DNA from: Chiloscyllium plagiosum | Lineage: Eukaryota | Direction: 5' to 3' | Assembly: GCF_004010195.1 (NCBI RefSeq) | Contig: NC_057718.1 | Span: 4,701,219-4,721,218 of the forward strand | DNA: 20,000 nt | In this document: piece by piece, positions 1,157 to 19,640 of the stretch | How positions within the stretch are numbered: the stretch's first letter is position 1 | Layout of the letters: each line of letters starts with the position of its first letter | Notes under the pieces: model-generated | Told to the model about the DNA's origin: nothing | Seen by the model: only the letters and a program-made list of their open reading frames with translations | The model's database searches: none | Position numbers and translations under genes: made by a program

Positions 1157-1251
1157 TCCTGAAGAAAGGCTTATGCCCGAAACATCGATTCTCCTGCTCC
1201 TCGGATGCTGCCTGGCCTGCTGTGTTTTTCCAGCACCACATTTTTCAACAT
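1157..1251 (+). mobile_element. Short Penelope-like (PLE-derived) element with hammerhead-like core and flanking direct repeat
   Basis: CTGAAGA-A-AGGC-TTAT-GCCC-GAAAC-ATC at 1159-1186, followed by GATGCTGCCTGGCCTGCTGTGTTTTTCCAGC shared with other copies. TAAACCATTGTGGT is repeated at 1143-1156 and 1252-1265. Confidence 0.75.
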
Positions 1252-1704: not shown

Positions 1705-2029
1705 GTAAGTGTTGGAATGTGAAAGAACGTCGACTCACTGTCTACTTTGGAAATGATTCTGACAGTGTGTATCGGGAGAACTGAGCACCGATGGAAGCTT
1801 GCTGATTGAAGATCGATTGTTTGAGCGATGATGGCCCAGCAACAAACAGGAGTAAGTTTTCATGAAGTAGAAATATCCAAATCAATGTGATCGGTGACAA
1901 TGGGGATCACTGACCATTGGTTGAGAAGTCTAGGAATATTTGTGAATATCTCCCATAAACATCATCACCCAATTAGAATAGATGTAAAAACACAGAATTA
2001 AAGCATTAATTCATAGGACATTGCATTGT

Positions 2030-3023
2030 GATAAGTGACACACCTAAAAATGAGGTGTCAAACTGTTGAAGTTATGAAACAGGACTCTTTCTGTGCTAAA
2101 TGGCATAGACAGCATGTGACAGACAGAGCACAGCGATCCCAAAACCAAAGGATCAGATCCAATCTCTGCAATCCTACCACAGTCAGTGTGCAATGGTGGT
2201 GGATAATTAAACAACTCACGAAAGGCAGAGACTACACAAAGACCCCCCACCCTTAATGATGGGGGAGCCCAGTTCCTCAGTCCAAAATATAAAAAGGCTT
2301 AAGCATTTGCAACAGTGTTCAGCAAGATATGCCAAGTGACTGAACCATTACAGCTTCCTTTGGAGCTCCCCAGCATCCCAGAAGCCAGTCTTCAGCCAAT
2401 TTGAATCACATCACATGATGTCAGGAAATGGCTGAAGGTACTGGATACTGCAAAGGCTATAGGCCCTGACAATATTCTAGCAGAACACATGAGCTGCAGA
2501 ATTTGTAACACACCTAGCCAAGCTGTTCCTGTACAGCTGCAGCACTAGAATCTGGCCAACAATGTGAGAACTTGCCCAGGTGTGTGCTGTGCATAAAAAG
2601 CAGGACAAATTCTACCTGGTTTCTCATAAATCTCCTCTCATCATCAGTAACATGATGGAAGGTGTCATCAACAGTGCTATCAAACAACACTAACTCAGCA
2701 ATAACGTGCTTAGCGATGCCCAGTTTGGGTTCTGCCAGGGTCACTCAGCTCCTGCCCTCATTAGAAAGCCTTGGTTCAAACATGGACAAAAGAGCTGAAT
2801 TCTAGAGGGGAGGTGAGTGTGGCATCAAGGAGTCAGAGCAAAACTGGAATCAATGGGTATCAGGAGGAAGGCAGTCTGCTGGTTAGAGTCATATCTGGCA
2901 TATAAGAAGATGGCTATGATTGAGGTCAGTCATTTGCAGAGATGTTGTGGAGCTGAGGAGTTCCTCAGTAGTGTCCTAGGCTCAACCATCTTCAGCTGCT
3001 TCATCAATGACCTTCCCTCCATC
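2030..3023 (+). mobile_element. Decayed CR1-clade LINE (family A), ORF2/RT region, part 1
   Basis: Broken translations WWWIIKQLT, LDTAKAIGPDNI, AQFGFCQG, WHQGVRAKLESMGIR...SVLGSTIFSCFINDLPS; many stops and frameshifts. Confidence 0.8.
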
Positions 3024-3950
3024 TCCCAGTAAGATGGAGGCAGAGTAGGGCTTTTTGAGCCCTGGGCTTGTCTTCTGTCTGTATTTCTTTTCATTTCTTC
3101 CACTTTTTTCTCACTCCTTTCTCCTTTTTCTCTTTAATTTTGCTTTATTTACCTCTTGGTGAAGAGCTTGGTCACGGTGATAGCAGTGAGTAGGCCCGGC
3201 AGCACAGACTCAAGTGGGCCCAGCTGTGTGTCCTCACAGCAGTGACATTGGAAATGAGTCTGGGTTGCCCGCAGCTTCTGCATTACTGAGGCGGCCCTAG
3301 TGCCGACTCAACATCAAGTTCATCTTCCCTTCATTTGGCGGCTTTGGGTGAGGAGAGAGGTTCTAGGAGGTTGCCGTAGCGGAGCATGTGATGTGGATCC
3401 AGCTGTTCCTTGTGGCTGCTTCAGCAGACGCTGAAGACAAGGTAACAATGGGCATGGGATTCCAGTGGTCCGCATTTTCCTTGAGGCTTCTGCAGCATCT
3501 TTGCAGCAGCATGGTTGGTCTGGCCTAGCCTGGGACTCCTTTAGGTGGCTTCAGTGGCTCTCTACGTTCGTGTGGGTCTGGGTCTCCACATGGAGATTTC
3601 AGTCGGTCTGTGACACTTTATTTTCACCATCGTGGAGATCTGGCCTGAGATTCCAATGAGGGATTGGGTCTGGCCAACCCAGACCAGGAAAATGGATGAA
3701 ACAGACTCTATCTTAAATTCTCTTTTTTCTATTTTTTTTCATTATTACATTTTCATGGAAGGATTGTTATTCTGCTATATCCTTACTTTTCTAATTTATT
3801 AGAATGATTTTGTAGTTTTGAAGGTGTGTAATGTGTTTTTTTTCCTAATAATGTGTCATGAAGGTTTTGTACCTAGGTACCTTTGTCCCTCAGATGGCAC
3901 CCCGTAAGTGGTGACTTTAAACTTTTCACTGCACTCAAAGCTAATTCAAT
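3024..3950 (+). mobile_element. Unclassified non-autonomous retroposon-like insertion interrupting LINE family A
   Basis: Splits the RT between FINDLPSI and the GMFxxxC segment. Starts AAGATGG and ends in a TTTTCACTGCAC...AATTCAATTC tail like LINE/SINE 3' ends. No meaningful ORF. Confidence 0.5.
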
Positions 3951-4243
3951 TCCATTCAGAAGAGGGGATGTTCACCAGTTATTGCTATTGTTCAGCACCA
4001 GTCATGACTCCTCAGAAACTGAAGCAGTCCATATTGAAATGCAGCCAGACCTGGAAAATATCCAGGCTCATGCTGAAAGGTGGCAAGTAACATTCACATG
4101 TCACAAATTCCAGGCAATGACCATCTCCACGAACAGACCATCTAACGAGTGCCCCTTGGTGTTCAATGTTGTTACCATCACCGAATCTCCCTCTGTTGAC
4201 CTTCTTTGGGTTTCTATTGACCAGAAGTTGAGTTGGATTCACT
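3951..4243 (+). mobile_element. CR1-clade LINE family A, part 2
   Basis: FSTSHDSSETEAVHIEMQPDLENIQAHAERWQVTFTCHKFQAMTIS...SIDQKLSW, the RT C-terminal continuation of 2030-3023. Confidence 0.8.
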
Positions 4244-4931
4244 TAATGACAGGAGACAGAGACAGAGACTGATGATGGAGGCCAGTGGTGTTCCCCAGGG
4301 ATCGGTACTGGATCTACTTGTTTGTCACTTGTATAAATGATTTAGATCAGATTACAGAAAGCATGGTTACTAAGTTTGCAGATAACACCAAAATTGGTGT
4401 TGTAATGGACAGAGATCTTGATCGTTTGGAACAATTGTCTGAGGATTGGTATATGGAGTTTAATTTGGGTAAATGCAAGGTTTTGCATTTTAATAGAACA
4501 TATAAATAAGGCGAAGACGTATGCAATTAATGACTGGGCATTGGGTACTGTTGTAGAACAGAGAGCCAGGGTTTGGGTACAAATTCATTGACATCTGCAT
4601 GGTATTTGAGAAAGTGGTTAAGAAGGTGTTTAACATACTTGCCTTCATTGCTCAATCTTTTGAGTATAGGAGTTGGGACATGTTGTTGAGGTTGTACAGG
4701 ATATTGGTGAGGTGTCCAGTTCTGGCCACCCTGTTATTGGAAGGCTTTTATTAACCTGGAGAGGATGCAGAAGAGATTTACCAGGATGCTGATGGGTATG
4801 GAGGGTTTGGCACTTTTCTCAGTGGAGCATAGGAGGTTGAGCGATGACCACATCGAGATTTATAAAACAATAAGCGGTATAGACAAGGTGAATGGCAGGT
4901 GTCTTTACCTAAGGGTGAGGCATTTCAAGAC
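4244..4931 (+). mobile_element. CR1/HER1-type LINE fragment (family B) nested in family A
   Basis: INDLD...KFADNTKIG...WYMEFNLGKCKVLHF and MQKRFTRML, homologous to 18549-19640. Confidence 0.85.
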
Positions 4932-5017
4932 TGGGTGGGTACAACTCCAACTACACTCAGGAAGATCCACACCATCCAGGACAAAGAAGCCCACTTGATT
5001 GGCACCACATCCATCAC
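4932..5017 (+). mobile_element. CR1-clade LINE family A, part 3
   Basis: Encodes GTTPTTLRKIHTIQDKEAHLIGTTS, matching GAAPTTLKKLDTIQDKVAHLTGTTST at 16050-16161 (-). Confidence 0.7.
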
Positions 5018-5302
5018 ATACAGGAGCAGAATTAGTCGAATTGGTTAATTGAGTAAACTTCACCATTCTATTGTGGCTATCATGTCTCCCTGTAACCTTT
5101 GATTCCCTTACTAATTAAGAACCTCATATGACCACTACTCACATGACAAGCCTTTCATCTGCAGGGTCATTCTTGTAAACCTCCTCTGGGCCTCCTCCAA
5201 AGCCAACATGTCCTACTTTAGATATGGGACCAAAAACTGTTCTCAATATTCAGAATGCGGTCTGACGACAGCCTTATACAGTTTCAGTGGACATCTCTGC
5301 TC

Positions 5303-5518
5303 ACAAACAAAAGGAGAAATTGCTGGAAAAACTCAACAGGGCTGGCAACATCATGGAGAGAAAACAGAGTTCACAGTTCAGATCTAGTGACCCTTCTTCA
5401 TAACTGGTTGTGAAATGTTAACTTTGTTTCCTCTCTATAAATGCTGCAGATCTGCTGAGTTTTTCCAATATTTTCTGGTTTTGATCCTGTTTCCAACATC
5501 TGCCTTTCTTTGGATTTT
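5303..5518. mobile_element. Inverted (hairpin) PLE-like element with degenerate hammerhead core on the - strand
   Basis: Arms TTGCTGGAAAAACTCAACAG...GAGAGAAAACAGAGTT and AACTTTGTTTCCTCTC...CTGCTGAGTTTTTCCAATA are imperfectly complementary. Minus-strand 5401-5373 reads ATGAAGA-A-GGGTC-ACTA-GATCT-GAAC. Confidence 0.65.
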
Positions 5519-6687
5519 CTTCTTTAGTATATCCCTGTCCTTGCGCTCTAGCCCTCTTGAAATGAATGCTAACACTACATTTGCCTTCCTAACCAGGAAC
5601 TGAACCTGCAGGTTAACCTTAACAGAAATTAGCATCGGACCCTAATTCTCTTGATGCATCAGATTTACAAACCCTTTCTCTGTTTGGAAAGTAAACTGTG
5701 CCTCTATTCTTCCAACCAAAGTACATAACCTCCCATTTTCCCGCATTGTATTTCATCTGTTACTTCTTTGCCCACTCTCCCAGTCTGACCAAGTCCTCCT
5801 GTAACTTCTCCACATCTTCAACATTAGCTGTCTCTCCACCTGTCTTTGTCATCTGCAAACACAGCAACAATGTCCTCCGTTCCTTCATCCAGATTGTTAA
5901 TGTATAATGTAAATAGTTGTGACACTGACCCCTGTGGAACTCCAGCAGTCACCGGCTGCCATGCTGACAAAGATCCCTTTATCCCATTCTCTGCCTCTGC
6001 CTCTTCCTTTATCTAACCTGCCCATTACCACCCCAAAGAATTGTAAACAGGTTGGTCAGGCATGATCTTCCCTTGATGAAGCCATGCTGACTCAGCCCTA
6101 TTTTCACACACACTATTCTACAATTTCATTCTTAATAACAGACTCTAAAATCTTACCAGCAAATATGGTCAGGCTAACCAGCCTATAATTTCCTGTCTTC
6201 TCTCTCCCTCCTTAAGCAGGAGCGTTACATCAGCTATTTTCCAATCCACTGGGTCCATCCAGTGATTCCTGAACGATCACCACCAATGCCTGTATAATCG
6301 CCTCAGCTTTTCCCTCCAGAATCCTGGGGTGTAGTTCATCTGGTCCAGGTGGTTTATTCACCTTCAGCCCTTTCAGCTTCCTCAGCACCTTCCCCTCAGC
6401 GATAGTCACCTCTGCTCTCCTGACTCTCTTGAAGTTCTGGTGTGTGGCAGACTATGTCTCTAGCTTCATTTCCCACTACCTTGCTTCTTGTACCTTTTTA
6501 TATATCTAAAAGAACACCTGCAATCTTACATTGTCAGCTATCCTACACTCATATTTAATCTTCTCCCTTGTTATTGCTTTTTTGGTTATCATCAGCTGGT
6601 TTTTAAAGGCTGCCCCATCTTTTAGCTTCCTACGAATCTTCATAACATTGTATGCCTTTTCTGTTGCTTTATTCTGTCTTTAGTGAT

Positions 6688-6892
6688 TGTAATGAGGTCA
6701 GCCAGCTGGACCTCAAAGAATATGAGTTCCCTGATTGAGGCTGTTAATCTGGTGAATAAAAGGGGTGAGTGTCAGAGACACTGATCCTCTGGTGCCTGTC
6801 TCTGTATGAGGTATTGTTTTAGTCAAGGACTGTTCATGTGTAACTAAAGGGTGACTTGGCAATGGGATACCAACCTCTGTGAAGTTAGTCCA
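6688..6892 (+). mobile_element. Probable solo LTR
   Basis: About 205-bp insert in the CR1 copy, TGTAAT...CA ends, internal AATAAA. No clean TSD. Confidence 0.45.
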
Positions 6893-7010
6893 CTGTCCCT
6901 GACATCCCTTGATAGCCATTGTTGCTTCATCCTCCCCTTAGTTTGTTTCTTCCTCCTTGGAATGAATTTCTGTTTTTCCTTCTAAATTACTCCCAGAAGC
7001 CTTGCCACTA

Positions 7011-7949
7011 CTTTTTCTTCTAATTTCAAACCTATACTTTATTCGTAAAACATATCTTTATATACATACATAGTCATGAACCCAGTTCAGTTCTGTATGT
7101 AAGGAATAAAACTAACATTGGAGTTTGACTCTATTCAAACAAACCAAAGGCATTTCTTATTTGATCCAGACTATATTTATATGCGTTGAGGCACTAGGGG
7201 GAGTCTGATAACTGAATGGACTCCCATGTACCTTCAGCAGGAAGACCTTAGACATTGGCCTTTCCCCACTGCTCCTTGGCAGCAGCTGCCCCAAGATTTA
7301 GTGCGTCCCTCAGCACGTACTCCTGGACCTTGGAATGTTCAGGGCCAACTCATTGCTTAGGAAGACCAACAAGTTACCGACAAACCAAAGGGCATCTTTC
7401 ACCAAGTTGATGGTCCTCCAGTTGATGCTTGTCTCGGCGTGCGCACAGTTCATTTTTATCAAGATGGATTATTTTTTGACCAGTAAAGGAATTAAGGGTG
7501 AGAGTGAGAGGGCGGGTAAGTGAAGCTGAGGCCATGAAAAGATCAGCCATGATCTTATTGAATGGTGGAGCGGGATCAAAGACCCAGTTGGCCTACTCCT
7601 GCTTCTGTTTCTTATATCCCTCTGAACAGACCTTAGAGCAGAGAGTCCCGTGTCACAGAGCTGCTCGGGATGAACCTTCACACCAACCAGTGCATCTTCC
7701 TCTAGACTTCCTTTACAAAGGTGCACTCCAGCAGGAGATGTGTGATAATCCACGAACCCCCACCCCCCACAGCCACTTTGAGGGCAACGTGTGGTGGTGC
7801 AGACTGACCAGGCGTATATGAAGGATCTGATGGCAGTGTCAGATCCACCAGCCAAGCAATGTCTTGTTGACAGGTGATACGGAATGGTCCAACTACTTGG
7901 GGCGTTCCATTTTAGTGAGGCTACTCCCATCCTTCGCAACACTGGGGAC
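7011..7949 (-). mobile_element. Older 3' fragment of a Tx1/L1-clade non-LTR retrotransposon
   Basis: SPVLRRMGVASLKWNAPSSWTIPYHLS and TTTRCPQSGCGG are homologous to the 7965-9850 element. Shares the 3' terminal TATACTTTATTC (7033-7044 vs 7975-7986), with a T-rich tail at about 7012-7027. Confidence 0.8.
7447..7617 (+). mobile_element. CR1-type LINE 3' end nested in the older Tx1 fragment
   Basis: GATCAGCCATGATCTTATTGAATGGTGGAGC...GGCCTACTCCTGCTTCTGTTTCTTAT is the reverse complement of the CR1 termini near 5018 and 16955. Confidence 0.75.
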
Positions 7950-7964
7950 ATCCCCTGAAGTATC

Positions 7965-9850
7965 TTTTTTTTTATATACTTTATTCATAAAATAATTTGA
8001 TGGTCTGTACAGTTGGTCATGCCATACATATGTAAACATGTACATACAGAGATCAGAATTTATCATTTTTATACAGGTCTGTACATTTTTCCAATCATAT
8101 GCCCATATAATTAGCTGAGGCGTCAGCAGAGCCCAAATGACTGCATGGGCCCCCTGTTCTTCTTTAGGCAGGCAGACTTTACAATAGTTCTGTTAATGTT
8201 AATGTTCAAGTTCCATGAGTTGTTGATCCTCCAGGCACAGTTGATGTTCGTCTCGGTGTGCGTCTCAGAGAACAGGCCGTAGAGCTCGGAGTCCCGTGTC
8301 ATGGCGCTGCTCGGGACGAACCTCGACAGACACCACTGCATTCCTCTCCAGACTTCTTCTGCATTGGCACATTCCAGAAGGAGGTGTGTGACCGTCTTGT
8401 CCCCCCCGCAGCCGCTTTGAGGGCAGCGTGTGGTGCGGCTGAGAGTCCTGGCGTCCATAAAGGATCTCACAGGCAGAGCCCTTCTCACCACCAGCCAAGC
8501 TGTCTTGGTGCTTGTTGGAAAGTTCTGGTGATGAGGCATTCTGCCAAATGGCTTTGACAGTCTGCTCAGGGAACCGCTCGATAGGATCCGCCCTCTCCTT
8601 TTCCCGAAGGGTCTCAAGGACACTACGTGCTGACCACTTCCAGATGGACTTGTGGTCCACGAAGGACAGGTGATACGAAACACTCCAACTACTCGGAGCG
8701 TTCCGCGGCAGCGAGGCCAGGCCCATCCTTCGCAACACCAGGGACAGGTAGAACCTCAGTACGTAGTGACACTTGGTGTTTGCGTACCGGGGATCCACGC
8801 ACAGCTTGATGCAGCCACACACAAACATGGCCATCAGGGTGAGGGTGGCATTGGGTGTATTTTTTCCCCCGTTGCCCAGATCTTTAGACAGCGAGTCCCT
8901 TTGGACCCGGTCCATCTTTGACCTCCATATAAACTGGAAGATGGCCCGGGTGACTGCAGCGGCACAGGTTCTGGGAATAGGCCAGACCTGTGCCACGTAT
9001 AATAGCAATGACAGTGCCTCACACCTGATGACCAGGTTTTTTCCCATGATGGAGAGTGACCGTAGCTTCCATCTACCCAGTTTCTGCCTCACTTTGCTGA
9101 TACGCTCCTCCCAAGACCCGACGCACGCCCCAGCCCCCCCGAACCAAATACCCAGCACCTTCAGGTGGTTGGTCCTGAAGGTGAAGGGGATCGAGGATTG
9201 GTCGGCCCAGTTCCTGAAGAGCATGGCCTCGCTCTTGCCTCGGTTTACCTTGGCCCCCGAGGCCCGTTCGAACTGGTCACATATGCACATGAGTCTGTGC
9301 ACAGATAGTGGATCCGAGCAGAAAACGGCGACATCATCCATGTACAGGGAGGCCTTAACCTGCAGGCCCCCGCTGCCAGGAATAGTCACCCCTCTCAGGC
9401 TCGCATCCTTCCTGATGGACTCGGCAAATGGCTCTATGCAGCACACAAACAAGGCAGGAGAGAGAGGGCAGCCCTGCCTGACTCCAGATCTGACTGGGAA
9501 GCTATCTGATTCCCACCCATTGATTGAGACTGCACTGACAATGTTGGTGTAGAGCAGTCTGATCCAATTGCAGATTCCCTCCCCAAAGCCCATTTTGGAA
9601 AGAACATCTCTCATGTACCTGTGTGATATCCTGTCAAAGGCTTTCTCCTGGTCCAGGCTGATCAGGCAGGTGTCCAACCCTCTGTCCTGCACGTAGGCGA
9701 TCGTATCCCTGAGGTGTGCGAGACTCTCAGCGATCTTCCTGCCGGGAAAACACAGGTTTGGTCGGGGTGAATCACCGACCCAGAGCAGACCTGACCCGGT
9801 TGGCGATTACCTTTGACAGAATTTTGTAATCCGCATTCAACAGTGAGAGT
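7965..9850 (-). mobile_element. 5'-truncated Tx1/L1-clade non-LTR retrotransposon with poly(A) and 15-bp TSD
   Basis: Perfect TSD ATCCCCTGAAGTATC at 7950-7964 and 9851-9865; A9 tail (T run 7965-7973); AATAAA at 7985-7980; RT and CCHC-type motifs. Confidence 0.93.
8214..9850 (-). pseudogene. Tx1-like ORF2: reverse transcriptase plus C-terminal Cys/His motif, frameshifted
   Basis: LSLLNADYKILSKVIANR (frameshift) IHPDQT (frameshift) LDQEKAFDRISH, SGVRQGCPLSPALF, LYMDDV, LKVLGIWF (ORF 8265-9692). After a further frameshift, CPQSGCGGDKTVTHLLLEC. Endonuclease absent. Confidence 0.9.
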
Positions 9851-9977
9851 ATCCCCTGAAGTATCCCCCTTTCTCCTCAAGTACCTTCAGTAGAAGCTAC
9901 CTTCATGAAGCAGGGCGAGTCGACTGGCACTGTCCCTGCACCTTCTTCACTGTCAGCCTGACTGTATTGTGGGTCTG

Positions 9978-10064
9978 GAAATGTGTTGCTGGAAAAGTGC
10001 AGCAGGTCGGGCAGCATCCAGGGAACAGGAGAATCGACGTTTCGGGCATAAGCCCTTCTTCAGG
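9978..10064 (-). mobile_element. Short PLE-like element, best-preserved copy
   Basis: The reverse complement aligns along its length with 1158-1245. Confidence 0.8.
10036..10063 (-). ncRNA. Minimal hammerhead ribozyme-like motif (PLE type)
   Basis: CUGAAGA-A-GGGC-UUAU-GCCC-GAAAC-GUC: both conserved core boxes, a 4-bp stem II, a palindromic ACGU at stem III and a GUC triplet. Activity is not demonstrated. Confidence 0.65.
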
Positions 10065-10889
10065 ACCCTGGTCTGAGAATCAGGCACTAGCCCAGGTTAT
10101 AGCTCTGGTTGGCTGCTCACTGAATGGGTGTTAGGCCAATATAGCAAAGTAAACACCAATTGCAACTCAGTTAAACTGACAATCCACCACGTTCTGCTCT
10201 CAATCACAATCCAGAAAATTTCAACTGGTCTTTTAGTTTGTAACCTGTAAACATTTCCCCTATTTTCCTTCAACCTGAATGTAACCAATAATAGTCCAAT
10301 TCGTTGCACACACCAAACCATAAGGTTTGTGATATGACTCTTTTGTGCTGTGCCCCTTATCCTGGGCTTCCATTTATCCCATTGGATTCTCCCATTCTCC
10401 GCCAAATTCCCCAAACTATATATTCACTCAGACTGTGTCTAGCTCAGGATGTGATCTCTCCTTCTTGACTGTGTGAAGCATTCCACTTGGACTTTGAGAA
10501 ATCAAATCCATTCACTCAGCCTCTTCCTGTCCCCCATTCTCACAAACTTTCTCCAACCAGGTCCCCACTGTCCCCATACTCAGAGGTTTCTTTGTCCTCT
10601 CTCTCTGAATCCCTGATTCAGTTTCTTCATCATAATATTTGTCATCTCCCTCCTGAAACTCCCTTTAAACTGTGGAAAATCATCAAGCTGAGAGTTAATC
10701 AAACAATTTCTTCACAGAACATTTTCACTCTCTTTAAAACCATTTCTAGATCACAATCTCTTCCACCATGATGTAATGTGCTCAAGGAACTAGAAAGACT
10801 CTCTACATGGAGATGAACTTTGCAAGTTCCTGAATAATGTGGGTAACCATGGGGGAAAGAAGGTGAGATTCTGAAAGTCAAGGCAATAA

Positions 10890-11196
10890 TAGAATAAAAT
10901 CCCTACAGTTTGGGGACAGGCCATTCGGCCGAACAAGTCCACACTGACCCTCTGAACAGCACCCAGCCCTAACCAAGCCCCCTTCCTTATCCTTACAACC
11001 CTGCATTTCCTATGGTTAACCCACTGAACCGACTTATCCCTGGACACTATGGCCACTCCATCTAACCTGCATATCTTTATCCTGTGGGAGGAAACCCATG
11101 GGGAGGATGTGTAAACTCCACACAGTCACCTGGGGGTGGAATCAAACCTGGGGTCCCTGGTGCTGTGAGACAGTAGTGCTAGCCCCCTTGCCGCCC
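10890..11196 (-). mobile_element. HE1-like V-SINE, diverged
   Basis: Reverse complement of the 11444-11750 SINE (AAACTCCACACAG, CTAACCTGCA, ACAGGCCATTCGGCCGAACAAGTCCACAC). Confidence 0.8.
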
Positions 11197-11295
11197 TCAT
11201 CAGATTTTATAGTGAAGGCTTTAACACTGAGATGAAAATCTCGCTCATGAGGAGTGAGGTACTTATTTGTACCCATTTACAGCTCATCATTACCA

Positions 11296-11482
11296 ACTAT
11301 CACCGCTATGCTGATTGTTTATTCTTCCATATGGGAGAGAGGAATTGGCCTGCAACAGTTTCCCACAGTGAAACCAGAGCGTTACTCTGCCAGGTGTAGC
11401 TAACTGGTCTTTTCATAAAGTCTTCATCTTCACCAACATCCATGGGTGGCACGGTGGCAGAGTGGTTAGCACTGCTGCCTCA
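11296..11482 (+). repeat. 187-bp direct repeat, copy 1
   Basis: Matches 12010-12196 with 4 substitutions by manual count. Confidence 0.95.
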
Positions 11483-11750
11483 CAGTGTCAGAGACCCGGG
11501 TTCAATTCCTCAGGCGACTCTCTGTGTGGAGTTTGCACATTCTCCCCGTGTCTGTGTGGGTTTGCTCCAGTTTCCTCCCACAATCCAAAAATGTGCAGGT
11601 TAGGTGAATTGGCCAGGCTAAATTGCCCGTAGTGTTGGGTGAAGGGGTAAATGTAGGGGAATGGATCTGGGTGGGTTACACTTCGGCGGGTCGGTGTGGA
11701 CTTGTTGGGCCGAAGGGCCTGTTTCCACACTGTAACTAATCTAATCTAAT
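11444..11750 (+). mobile_element. HE1-like tRNA-derived V-SINE, full length
   Basis: Box A TGGCAGAGTGG (11455-11465), box B GGTTCAATTCC (11499-11509), V-domain TCTGTGTGGAGTTTGCACATTCTCCCCGTGTCTG, HER1-like 3' tail GGGCCGAAGGGCCTGTTTCC and (CTAAT)3. Confidence 0.9.
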
Positions 11751-12009
11751 AATCCCTCAACCTCTCTGGGAATGCTCCAAGGAAACCGAGCTGTCTACTT
11801 GGTCCATACAATAGGGCATCAGTGGGATACCAGTCTCCCAGAATCAGTCTCATAGCTGACCCCCCACTCACTGAGAATACACTTCTGAAGTTTGCATTTC
11901 ACTGCTCACTTTGCATCCTGACACCCCCATCTCCCACTCCTCAACAGGGGGCCTCTCAGCTTGATTCACTTGCTCTCTTTGCGCTCACTCACTTACTGTT
12001 TGCTTGGAG

Positions 12010-12196
12010 ACTATCACCGCTATGCTGATTGTTTATTCTTCCATGTGGGAGAGAGGAATTGGCCTGCAACAGTTTCCCACAGTGAAACCAGAGCGTTACT
12101 CTGCCAGGTGTAGCTAACTGGTCTTTTTATAAAGTCTTCATCTTCACCAACATCCATGGGTGGCACGGTGGCACAGTGGTTAGCACTGCTGCTTCA
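12010..12196 (+). repeat. 187-bp direct repeat, copy 2 (includes the first ~39 nt of the SINE head)
   Basis: Offset of 714 bp from copy 1. Confidence 0.95.
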
Positions 12197-12552
12197 TTGA
12201 GAGCCTGTAGATTTACTGCACCTCTGCCTTGGCTCACCTTTTAGCACAGAGCCCAGCAGCTTGTTATACCTGCTCACCCTCCACATCCTGGGTATAGACA
12301 GGTTACTATCCAGCATAGTGTTATCTCATTGGAAAACCTAGAGTGTATGTGAGTGACATTCTTGGAGTAGAAAGGGCGAGGAAGCCTCTCAGTGACCTGT
12401 GTACATTTCTCTGTGGGTATCTGGTTACCCAGTGATACCATCCTGGCTCCATGTAACAGGACAGTAGTTCAGTGTGGACTGATGGTCTTTTCACAGGAGG
12501 AGAGGGAATAAGTTCTGCAATAAGGCTCGAACCTGCACATGTTAAGAATCAG

Positions 12553-12670
12553 GAGAAAGTGAGGACTGCAGATGCTGGAGGTGAGAGTCGAGAGTGTGTT
12601 GCTGGAAAATCTCCTGTCCCTCAGATGCTGTCTGACATGCTGTGCTTTTCCAGCACCACACTCGCGACAG
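12553..12670. mobile_element. Internally deleted hairpin PLE-like element with 12-bp TSD
   Basis: GTTAAGAATCAG at 12541-12552 and 12671-12682. Arms GTCGAGAGTGTGTTGCTGGAAAA and TTTTCCAGCACCACACTCGCGAC. No hammerhead core left. Confidence 0.8.
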
Positions 12671-13334
12671 GTTAAGAATCAGTTGACAGCAGTGGGAATG
12701 GGACAGCAGCAAAGCAGAGCCCAATGCAGATTGTTGGGTTGCCTGAACATGGAGCTTTTTGGTGTCTCCAATTGAGCAGCCATGATCCTGTCCAGCTCCT
12801 CATCGCTGCTGAGCACATGATTACACAAGAGTGGTGCCACAGAAGTGTGGTGCATCCCTAATAATGTGAGCAGGCTGAGGTTGTGAGAGAACTCCCTGCA
12901 GCTCTACATGAAGCGGAACTCTGCATGAAACTCCCTGAAACTGACACTGAGCCAATTTCTTGTGAAATTGCATCGTGAAACCAATGTCCCTGTCCTCATG
13001 GTGAACAATCCATACATTTATACAAAGAAGTTAGCATTATTCCCATCTCCAGGTCAACTTTCCCTTGACCACGCCATCATGAACAATTGTGTAAAACCCT
13101 GTGATCTTCCTGTGCTACATAAATAGAACTGTTTTCTTCCTTTCCTCTTGCTTTATTTCTATCTGCTTTGTCCCATTTTCTCTGTTCAATCTCTCTGCTG
13201 ACCCTCTTCTTCATAACTAACCATCTCCTTAAATCCATCTTCTCCTGGGTCTCGACTTCCCTACACCTGTCTACCATTCCAATGGTGGGGCAGTCCCTGA
13301 TCAGAGAAACTGTTCTGTTTCAAAACCATCATGA

Positions 13335-13433
13335 GCCTGAAACATTAACCCTGGCCCCCTCCTCCCAGACACTGTCAGACTTGCTGAGGTTTGATGTTTT
13401 TTTCTCTGGTTTCCATTGTCTGGAATATCCTGC
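13335..13433 (+). mobile_element. Highly degenerate PLE-like copy
   Basis: CCTGAAACATTAACCCTG...CAGACACTGTCAGACTTGCTGAG resembles the family 3' part; preceded by a pyrimidine-rich tract. Confidence 0.4.
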
Positions 13434-13798
13434 TGCTGTGTCGAAGTTGTCAGGAGTGGCTCCTCCTGGATGTCAATCCAAATCTCACAGCCAGCCTCCC
13501 CTGTCCTGAACAGCCTGGAGCAAGGTTTGAAAACTCCTCAAGTATGTCCCAAATTCTCACTCCGAATATCCTGTTCTCACTGACTACAACAATAACACAG
13601 CTATTCAACTGATCAAAGCAACCAGCATATGTCTATTTGGATGGTACTGATTCAGGAGAATTGCTGTTGAGGGGCATGAGCATCTAGCTGAACTGGAAAG
13701 TGAGAGCTTTATTTTAAAATCCCATCTGGAAGATTCTGTGTGAAAGGCCATCATTCCTGTCGGAGTGTACATCCCAGTCTAGGTGCTGGGTATAAACA

Positions 13799-14001
13799 GG
13801 AGACAGTGAGGACTGCAGATGCTGGAGATCAGAGTTGAAAAGTGTGGCACTGGAAAAGCACAGCAGGTCAGGCAGCATCCAAGGAACAGGAGAGTCAATG
13901 TTTTGAGCATAAAGCCTTTCATCTGTGCTTGAAATGTCAACCCTCCTGCTCTTCAGATGCTGCCTGACCTGCTGTGTTATTCCAGCATCACACTTCATCG
14001 A
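13799..14001. mobile_element. Hairpin PLE-like element with 15-bp TSD
   Basis: TGCTGGGTATAAACA (13784-13798) vs TGCTGTGTATAAACA (14002-14016). About 70-bp inverted arms with a perfect 21-bp core (13859-13879 / 13956-13976). Confidence 0.85.
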
Positions 14002-14098
14002 TGCTGTGTATAAACACTTTCCCCAAAAAGCAAGATGTTATTCACTGAATAAACTTTACACTGAATAACACGGGTGATTATTTATTTGGTTTCACCAG

Positions 14099-14226
14099 GG
14101 TTTCAAGTTGGAGGCAGCATACAGTCAGAGACAAAGGGAATCTGGATGTGGTGTCTCCCACATCCCCAGAAGAAAGTTTGCTGCCTGCTGCTGCTGGACA
14201 CTGATGGGCTTGGAGATGTGGGAAAG
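14099..14226 (+). CDS. GBP: Guanylate-binding protein, second coding exon (switch I/G2 and G3 motifs)
   Basis: Acceptor TTTGGTTTCACCAG|GG at 14098/14099; donor AAG|GTAAAA at 14226/14227; 128 nt. G1704+GG completes a Gly codon, then [42 protein letters not shown], matching GBP [43 protein letters not shown]. Confidence 0.93.
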
Positions 14227-15217: not shown

Positions 15218-15325
15218 CTTCATCAAGGTTTTGATGAAGAGTCAACTAGACTCCAAACGTTAGCATGCTGTCCCTCTGTGGATGCTGCCTGACCTGCTGT
15301 GATCTCTGGCAAATAGTTTTGTTCA
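15218..15325 (+). mobile_element. PLE-like element of a second subfamily with mutated hammerhead core
   Basis: TTGATGA-A-GAGTC-AACTA-GACTC-CAAAC-GTT (15231-15261), then GGATGCTGCCTGACCTGCTGTG. Small inverted head CTTCATCAA-GGTT-TTGATGAAG. Confidence 0.7.
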
Positions 15326-18548: not shown

Positions 18549-19640
18549 TTAGATCTCATGGAATACAGGGAGTGGCTCGAATGTAGAAGACAGAGGGTGA
18601 TGGTGGCAAGTTGCTTTTCGGATTGGAGGTCCATGGGGAGTAGTGTACCACAAGGATCGGTGCTGGGTCCACTGCTTTTCATCATTTATATAAATGTTTT
18701 TGGATGTGAACATAGGAGGTATAGTTAGTAAGTTTGCAGATGACACCAAAATTGGAGGTGTAGTGGACAGCGAAGAAAGTTACCTCAGATTACAATGGCA
18801 TCTTAATCAGAAGAGCCAATGGGCTGAGGAGTGGCAGATAGAGTTTAATTTAGATAAATGTGAGGCCTGCATTCTGGAAAGGCAAATTAGAGCAGGACTC
18901 CTACCCTTAATGGTAAGGTCTGAGCTGAACAGAGACCTTGAAATGCAGGTTCATTGTTCCTTGGAAGTAGAGTCGCAGGTAGATAGGATAGTGAAGAAGG
19001 TGTTTGGTATGCTTTCCTTTATTGGTCAGAGCATTGAGTAAAGGAGTTGGGAGGTGATGTTGCGTCTGCACAGGACTTTGGTTAGGCTGCTTTTGAAATA
19101 TTGCATGCAGTTCTGGTCTCCTTCCTACTGGAAGGATGTTGTGAAACTTGAAATGGTTCAGAAAAGATTTACAAGGATGTTGCCAGAATTGGAGGATTTG
19201 AACTATAGGGAGAGAATGTATAGGCTGGGACTGTTTTCCCTGGACCATCGGAAGCTGAGGATGACCTTATAGAGGTTTATAAAATCATGAGGGGCATGGA
19301 TAGGGTAAATAGAGAAAGTCTTTTCCCTGGGGTGGGGGAGACCAGAACGAGAAGTCATAGGCTTAGGATGAGAGGGAAAAGATATAGAAGATACCTAAGG
19401 GGCAATTGTTTCATGCAGAGTGTAGTGTGTGAATGAAATGAGCTGCCAGATGAAGTGGTGGAGGTGAGTGCAATTACAGCATTTAAAAGGCATTCGGATG
19501 GGTATATGAATAGGAAGGGTTTAAGAGGGATATGGGCCAAGTGCTGGCAATTGGGACTAGATTAGATTAGCATTACTGGGCAGCATGGATGAGTTGGACT
19601 GAAGGGTCTGTTTCTGTGCTGTATATCTCCATGACACTAT
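18549..19640 (+). mobile_element. 5'-truncated HER1-like (CR1 clade) LINE
   Basis: VPQGSVLGPLLFIIYIN, SKFADDTKIGG, YCMQFWSP, VQKRFTRMLP, and a 3' tail shared with the HE1 SINE; frameshifted. Confidence 0.9.

Follow-up and report, generated by a model that had tools for sequence, protein, structure and literature searches.

Minimal hammerhead ribozymes (min-HHRs) were described in 2014 by Cervera and De la Pena in the pLTRs of metazoan Penelope-like elements (PLEs), where most are isolated, scattered motifs or pairs on opposite strands (PMC4209133). They combine a CUGANGA box followed by one extra base, a G10.1-C11.1 pair, a short stem II and a short stem I with a GAAA box that leads into a palindrome where helix III would be, and in the assays reported there monomers showed zero cleavage and dimers a low level. 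None of the species rows of Fig. S3 in that paper that we compared is a cartilaginous fish. EN-bearing PLEs leave characteristic marks of integration, namely an inverted arm, an optional tail of 30-40 nt and a target duplication, which some insertions lack (Arkhipova et al. 2013, PMC3846280; PMC8557442). PAc Poseidon of Anolis carolinensis, an autonomous and assayed element, carries a hammerhead near the 3' end of the insertion and has two 3' end points that give an optional tail of the same 30-40 nt; its hammerhead cuts only with the element's protein and is dispensable for insertion in vitro, and RNA-seq ends are absent at the cut site in the data presented with it (Frangieh et al. 2024, PMC11167929). 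Also related to PLE pLTRs are the non-LTR retrozymes, small non-coding repeats with a type I hammerhead whose monomers are dispersed, many of them in introns, and whose active forms are tandem arrays of at least two units (PMC7229834; bioRxiv 10.64898/2026.07.22.740005). The second of these sources, a preprint of 2026, traces the animal retrozymes back to PLE pLTRs, and its supplements may cover the family described below under the one cartilaginous fish that it includes. Our search of the shark literature on hammerhead retrotransposons and Penelope elements found nothing on this family.

The hammerhead considered here lies on the minus strand of a 20-kb stretch of DNA, which we analysed as a whole and call the window. 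Positions 10069-10030 read AGGGUC-CUGAAGA-A-GGGC-UUAU-GCCC-GAAAC-GUC-GAUUCU on that strand; our re-reading agrees with the first-pass annotation, which had claimed an intact minimal core at 10030..10069, and both boxes, stem II, the GUC triplet and the ACGU palindrome are all as it described them. They form a complete minimal type I hammerhead (10063-10036), the sole one in the window, and its core (10036..10063, minus strand) consists of the CUGANGA box, an extra A, a 4-bp stem II with a 4-nt loop, the GAAA box, ACGU and GUC. In hammerhead numbering, C3 to A9 are 10063-10057 and the extra A between 9 and 10.1 is 10056; stem II pairs 10055-10052 with 10047-10044, 4 bp closed by G10.1-C11.1 around the loop UUAU; G12 to A15.1 are 10043-10040, the palindrome that replaces stem III is 10040-10037, and C17 is 10036. 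This numbering places the predicted scissile bond between C17 and G1.1 (10035..10036, minus strand), in agreement with the first-pass annotation. The motif thus agrees with the published min-HHR consensus in its CUGANGA and GAAA boxes with an NUH triplet, the extra base, the G10.1-C11.1 pair, the palindromic 15.2-16.2, the lack of helix III and a helix I that, counting only its 2 element-derived bp, falls in the short range of 2-5 bp. It differs from the described motifs in that its 4-bp stem II is at the short end and in that the 6-bp stem I that can be drawn here is not native (PMC4209133).

Could such a motif arise by chance? The catalytic-box pattern has one match in the window and matches in 1 of 200 shuffles, and the full descriptor (boxes, both stems and palindrome) also has one match in the window, with 7 of 2000 shuffles yielding one. 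Folded by itself, the 40-mer adopts stems I and II as drawn, at -11.9 kcal/mol, and this energy taken alone is not unusual, since 28 of 200 shuffles fold equally well (z -1.1). The first-pass annotation had proposed a check against the Rfam hammerhead models, and these gave no match at E up to 5 in the window or up to 10 in 9960-10120; such a miss is expected of a motif without helix III and hence carries no weight against hammerhead identity. The ordinary folding energy and the absent Rfam match are what a chance resemblance would have in its favor, but the rarity of the descriptor among shuffles and the pairing of stem II in three subfamilies argue against it and the family-wide variation on free positions, described below, refutes it, leaving chance with next to no probability. 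A pattern scan for the motif found 0 matches in viral contigs and 0 in GTDB genomes; the 14 metagenome loci that the same scan returned share no BLAST similarity with the window and were all rejected as unrelated chance hits.

The motif is situated in a gene for a guanylate-binding protein (GBP) on the plus strand, with PF02263 recognized on both flanking exons (1530-1704 and 14099-14226), which splice together in frame once the GT-AG intron between them (1705..14098, plus strand) is removed. Because the motif is on the minus strand, it lies antisense within this intron, as had been proposed. To define the insert we rely on contigs and reads from 4 of 24 sequencing runs, placed on 9871-10170 at a likeness of at least 82%, chiefly a DNA run of organism A (X1) and a DNA run of a related species, organism B (X14). 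One X14 contig (record 9) passes from 9871-9975 straight to 10066-10170, 105 + 105 letters with nothing between, and represents an empty site, known from this one contig of one run, two of whose four differences probably lie beside the joint. An X1 contig spans 10042-10170 with zero differences, which shows that the X1 sample carries the filled junction. The empty-site joint 9975|10066, the limits of the family pile-up and the kin in the window together delimit a 90-bp insert at 9976..10065 (minus strand), a 5'-truncated pLTR stub without tail whose 5' end (10065) is 2 nt before C3 of the hammerhead. Its downstream body (9976..10034, minus strand), up to the short tail-less 3' end, is common to all related arms in the window. 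No letters are shared at the empty-site joint, and there is accordingly no target duplication at this insert; a 6-nt duplication, the best match in the window, was considered and dropped, as the 105 + 105 letters on the two sides of 9975|10066 are retained in the empty-site contig.

That a related species joins 9975 directly to 10066 indicates that the insert is young. At 3 of its 90 positions (9978, 9998 and 10009) the copy departs from the letter most common in the family, and its flanks differ between the organisms by only 2-4 letters per 210; from these two figures it may instead be an older polymorphic insertion or a member of a minor subfamily. The boundary also bears on stem I. Since the insert ends at 10065, four of the six stem I pairs have no origin in the element: the element-derived 5' strand is 10064..10065 (minus strand), which forms 2 bp with 10034-10035, and the next four letters (10066..10069, minus strand), on the retained side of the empty-site joint, are host flank or junction filler. 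Their pairing, which lengthens stem I to 6 bp, is a coincidence and includes two G-U pairs, the chance of four such flank pairs being about 0.04, and family copies that run beyond 10065 carry other letters there. The warning in the first-pass annotation that stem I came partly from flank and might be coincidental was therefore well placed. The family's own stem I, read by eye from a loose-end consensus, has 2 bp followed by U-U and A-U, or 4 bp with a variant at 10033. An intact hammerhead in an intron might also suggest domestication, with a conserved host role like that of the amniote intronic hammerheads. Those ribozymes, however, have a helix III and loop contacts (PMC6155905), both of which this one lacks; no Rfam hammerhead covariance model matches it, it is antisense to the gene, and the orthologous site of a close relative is empty, which brings this possibility close to refutation and makes it scarcely credible.

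The intron holds several other repeats. On the same strand, about 120 bp downstream of the hammerhead stub and separated from it by near single-copy DNA, begins a 5'-truncated non-LTR retroelement (7469-9855, minus strand), presumably Tx1/L1-like, with an open RT frame of 513 aa (PF00078), a zf-RVT in a shifted frame and a second partial copy at 7469-7984. Nesting of the hammerhead insert in this adjacent RT element was ruled out by the near single-copy depth of the flanks. A direct repeat (11296-11482 / 12010-12196; 187 nt, 98% identical, spaced 714 nt) contains the head of a tRNA-like SINE and suggests a recent local duplication, and two SINE copies in opposite orientation (10881-11195, minus strand, and 11445-11757, plus strand), which we take to be HE1-like, could pair with each other as a long hairpin within the GBP intron. 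Elsewhere in the window, a candidate U6 at 19119-19227 was discarded as a weak chance Rfam match (E 0.32) within a LINE RT fragment.

The stub is one member of a large repeat family, in keeping with the earlier claim that the motif belongs to a short interspersed repeat. The 20 kb hold nine related arms, including this one, and the core is intact in one of the nine. BLAST and repeat searches recover kin at 1154-1243 (87%), 13837-13923, 13931-13996, 12610-12660, 15279-15299 and 5320-5352, and a profile built from the nine arms recovers those nine at E < 1e-11, as it must by construction, together with three weak extras. The closest relative is a solo copy of the same subfamily (1157..1247, plus strand; 87% identical) with a damaged core (G10.1 to A, G16.2 to A) and an 18-nt target duplication. 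Also of this subfamily is a head-to-head copy at 13807..14001 with damaged cores, a tail on the inverted arm only and a 15-nt target duplication. Another head-to-head copy (12553..12666) is truncated below the ribozyme, with a tail on the inverted arm and a 16-nt target duplication; in its part 12589-12666 the entire ribozyme was lost at the inversion joint, with the tail and the 16-nt duplication retained. Each of the three duplications has 1 mismatch. An older head-to-head copy (5308..5500) belongs to a second subfamily, in which stem II is 5 bp long and of another sequence, and its core has decayed; a third-subfamily copy (15229..15305, plus strand) has a perfect 5-bp stem II, with A-U at 10.2-11.2 (read by eye) where the hammerhead studied here has G-C, and changes at C3 and G12; a further related copy (13308..13410, plus strand) is strongly decayed. 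The three subfamilies in the window thus have different stem II sequences, all of which pair.

The architecture of these neighbors is that of EN-bearing PLE insertions. The head-to-head pairs represent three insertions, and in two of them the inverted arm outruns every direct arm by about 35 nt, a tail within the 30-40 nt of PAc Poseidon; inverted, 5'-truncated arms with a tail at one end are present at 13807-14001 and 12553-12666, and joints to the opposite strand are found across the family contigs. Target duplications (18, 16 and 15 nt) accompany 3 of 5 other insertions tested and are missing at two old ones, and the insert carrying the intact hammerhead is itself a solo arm with no tail. 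There are also differences from the described elements: the copies here are stubs of 60-200 bp without an ORF, the duplications of 15-18 nt exceed the 8-10 nt given for rotifers (PMC3846280; PMC8557442), and, whereas PAc is autonomous and assayed (PMC11167929), this family is known from its sequence, with no RT/GIY-YIG ORF seen joined to the repeat. Judged by its sequence, the motif very probably belongs to the PLE min-HHRs, and its derivation from a PLE, which the first-pass annotation had advanced, is well supported by the fit to the min-HHR consensus (PMC4209133) together with the insertion architecture; a link to a PLE ORF would follow from this ancestry.

Family contigs placed on 9871-10170 number 27,888 in X1 and 22,730 in X14, figures that reflect contig depth and are not copy numbers; nearly all fall at 9971-10070, with flank depths of about 10-65. 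Such abundance of short copies, and the fact that two solo copies here start just before C3, could point to an independent non-autonomous element, a hammerhead SINE or a monomer of a non-LTR retrozyme, with its own short RNA and no part for PLE truncation. Head-to-tail joints, from 10065 back to 9982, would fit such an element, and are rare, with one contig each in X1 and X14; the derivation of retrozymes from PLE pLTRs, mentioned above, would also suit it. However, the window has no tandem array, being the setting of a solo 90-bp copy and a single intact core where active retrozymes are tandem, and the tail, the inverted arms and the variable inversion points are marks of PLE integration. Moreover, many copies extend beyond 10065 and agree there in their first letters (826 contigs in X1, 884 in X14 and 658 reads in X21, an RNA library described below), which implies that the unit is a cut-down longer element. 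We consider an independent element unlikely.

The common start deserves comment. Both solo copies begin about 2 nt before C3 (10064-10065 and 1157-1158), and 10065 is also where one arm stops in many of the family's fold-back joints. This is partly an artefact of the reference and partly a matter of short microhomology at 10055/56. Inversion at the cleavage site was considered as a source of the joints but found no support, since the second-arm starts scatter (10065, 10056, 10055, 10043, 10036, 10033 and 10017), with the largest group at 10055/56.

Variation across family copies indicates where selection has acted. We set position classes from the hammerhead numbering and put CpG transitions aside; variant places were covered at 21 of 21 in X14 and at 27 of 28 in X1, the remaining one being A>G. 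Non-CpG variants that reach at least 5% in a DNA run (X1 or X14) occur at 4 of 6 free positions versus none of the 22 positions of the core and stem II (Fisher p 7e-4), in contig depth shares that under-count private variants, leave out copies less than 82% alike and are subject to edge effects near 10060-10065. The common free-position variants are at N7 (18.5% and 25%) and at three of the four loop II positions (up to 21%), whereas the core letters in CpG, namely G12, C11.1, C15.2, G16.2, C17 and G1.1, have decayed by 5-14%. The family thus behaves as a min-HHR family, with a conserved core, variable free positions and a covarying stem II. Variants on free positions, with CpG decay alone in the core, imply that the lineage giving rise to new copies was under selection and that copies decayed neutrally once inserted: selection acted on the source elements, not on this copy. 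The 3' core is intact in 58-68% of the family copies placed, a rough product of the CpG losses and an upper bound, which makes the intactness of this copy ordinary. The first-pass annotation had named a lack of preferential conservation of CUGANGA/GAAAC across genomic copies as a refuting sign; the outcome is split, in that free positions vary while the core is stable, but the core still decays at CpG and intactness does not set this copy apart. Two positions shift between organisms: the stem-I-perfecting variant at position 1.3 (window 10033) has a share of 8% in X1, 0.1% in X14 and 30% in run X17, and at 10021 the letter found in our copy makes up about 54% of the depth in X1 and 2% in X14. 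These subfamily shifts suggest recent lineage-specific bursts.

Taken together, we think it highly probable that the insert is a young, dead-on-arrival pLTR stub of an EN-bearing PLE, carrying the family's ordinary hammerhead and most likely silent where it stands. Copying by the element's RT would have begun at the tail-less start point and ended 2 nt upstream of C3, covering just the final 90 nt of the RNA, and the product would have landed antisense in the GBP intron with no target duplication. The hammerhead would be the minimal type I motif usual in the family, with a core still intact on account of the copy's youth. By analogy with the described systems, weak cleavage is probable in the source elements, where the motif, dimerized via the ACGU palindrome or aided by the element's protein, may process a tandem precursor RNA. 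The GBP pre-mRNA would carry the reverse complement, with no intact partner nearby, and the 6-bp stem I would be a lucky pairing with the flank.

Whether this copy could cleave is a question that folding calculations address in part. For the 40-mer alone, the active dimer comes to -22.7 kcal/mol, two monomers to -23.8 and the best dimer, which is inactive, to -26.4; with only the 2-bp element-derived stem I, the active dimer comes to -11.7 versus -16.4 kcal/mol. As the active dimer is near two monomers in energy, cleavage in vitro is plausible according to these models. When the wider flank is folded too, stem II stays at about 0.9 or more, whereas stem I drops from 0.76 to at most 0.02 in three contexts. 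Dimer cleavage is also the subject of Lunse et al. 2017. The proposal that the ribozyme may still cleave as a dimer accordingly survives for the sequence in vitro, as modeled, but such cleavage is unlikely at this locus, where there is a single copy, antisense to GBP, and none of the 8 other arms is intact to serve as a partner (the two same-strand arms that reach the ribozyme, at 13923 and 5408, have broken cores); published monomers are also inactive and dimers weak. We conclude that this copy is most likely inert as a ribozyme.

One could also accept the same origin and hold that the locus is active in vivo, an antisense transcript with the 6-bp stem I being cut at 10036/10035 with the help of RNA in trans or of a PLE protein. 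The core is fully intact, and adding the flank takes the active dimer from -11.7 kcal/mol, with its 2-bp stem I, to -22.7. Both strands of the family are abundantly represented in RNA: in X21, a poly(A) 3' single-cell RNA library of organism A of which about 2% was read, 1,928 of 12,955,460 records fall on the repeat, in both directions. Protein-assisted cleavage has been demonstrated for the Anolis PLE (PMC11167929). Against this, X21 reads are absent from both flanks (depth 0-0.1), and their ends do not accumulate at the cut, a weak argument given that one 3' single-cell library at such sampling is poorly suited to such ends. Furthermore, when more surrounding sequence is included the flank finds other pairing partners and stem I disappears, the best dimer fold differs from the active one, and a dimer in trans would be held by 4 bp and short stems. 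An active locus therefore seems to us very unlikely. If the copy affects its host, ribozyme action is a less likely route than a role as an inverted-repeat arm of double-stranded RNA within the GBP pre-mRNA: its plus-strand RNA can pair with plus-strand copies in the intron at -99 kcal/mol (13924-14001) and -81 kcal/mol (12610-12666), and these two also have fold-back partners of their own.

The family RNA carries a signal that resembles A-to-I editing. A>G / T>C places number 11 / 9 in X21, 5 / 4 in X1 and 3 / 2 in X14, while G>A / C>T places are level, at 11 / 4 in X21 versus 10 / 4 in DNA, with the caution that shares of DNA contigs cannot be set against shares of RNA reads and that individuals differ. 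Among the rows shown with a share below 1% in X1, 8 of 10 are A>G or T>C changes, of which 7 lean in the A-to-I direction. In the GAAA box, G replaces A at A13, A14 and A15.1 in 8-11% of the reads of one direction versus 1-2% of the other. Counter to editing, G>A at 10006 and 10011 is equally direction-biased, and 10016 leans the opposite way. We take this as a lead that family transcripts may undergo A-to-I-like editing, catalytic box included; it concerns the family and not this locus. Penelope repeats are heavily edited in a lizard, and hyper-editing is reported in the elephant shark (PMC5625713); we found no literature joining Penelope hammerheads with ADAR RNA editing. One might go further and speculate that the family is an equivalent of Alu with a catalytic twist, in which partners in trans let intact solo copies cut RNA and ADAR acts as an off switch. 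A large transcribed pool would then provide solo copies with partners, a stem I donated by the flank would help, host or antisense transcripts would be cut at a low rate, and ADAR editing of fold-back copies at A13, A14 and A15.1 would disable the ribozymes. We regard this idea as a long shot.

The single locus is of little weight, being a young passenger copy with a known class of motif. The pair of filled and empty sites nevertheless shows that a good-looking stem I can derive from the insertion site, which is a warning for ribozyme scans. The possibility that family transcripts are A-to-I edited within the catalytic box is a lead. Of wider interest is the family itself, a very abundant vertebrate PLE family in whose sources the hammerhead core is under selection, and which would make a fair substrate for the question of what hammerheads do for PLEs.
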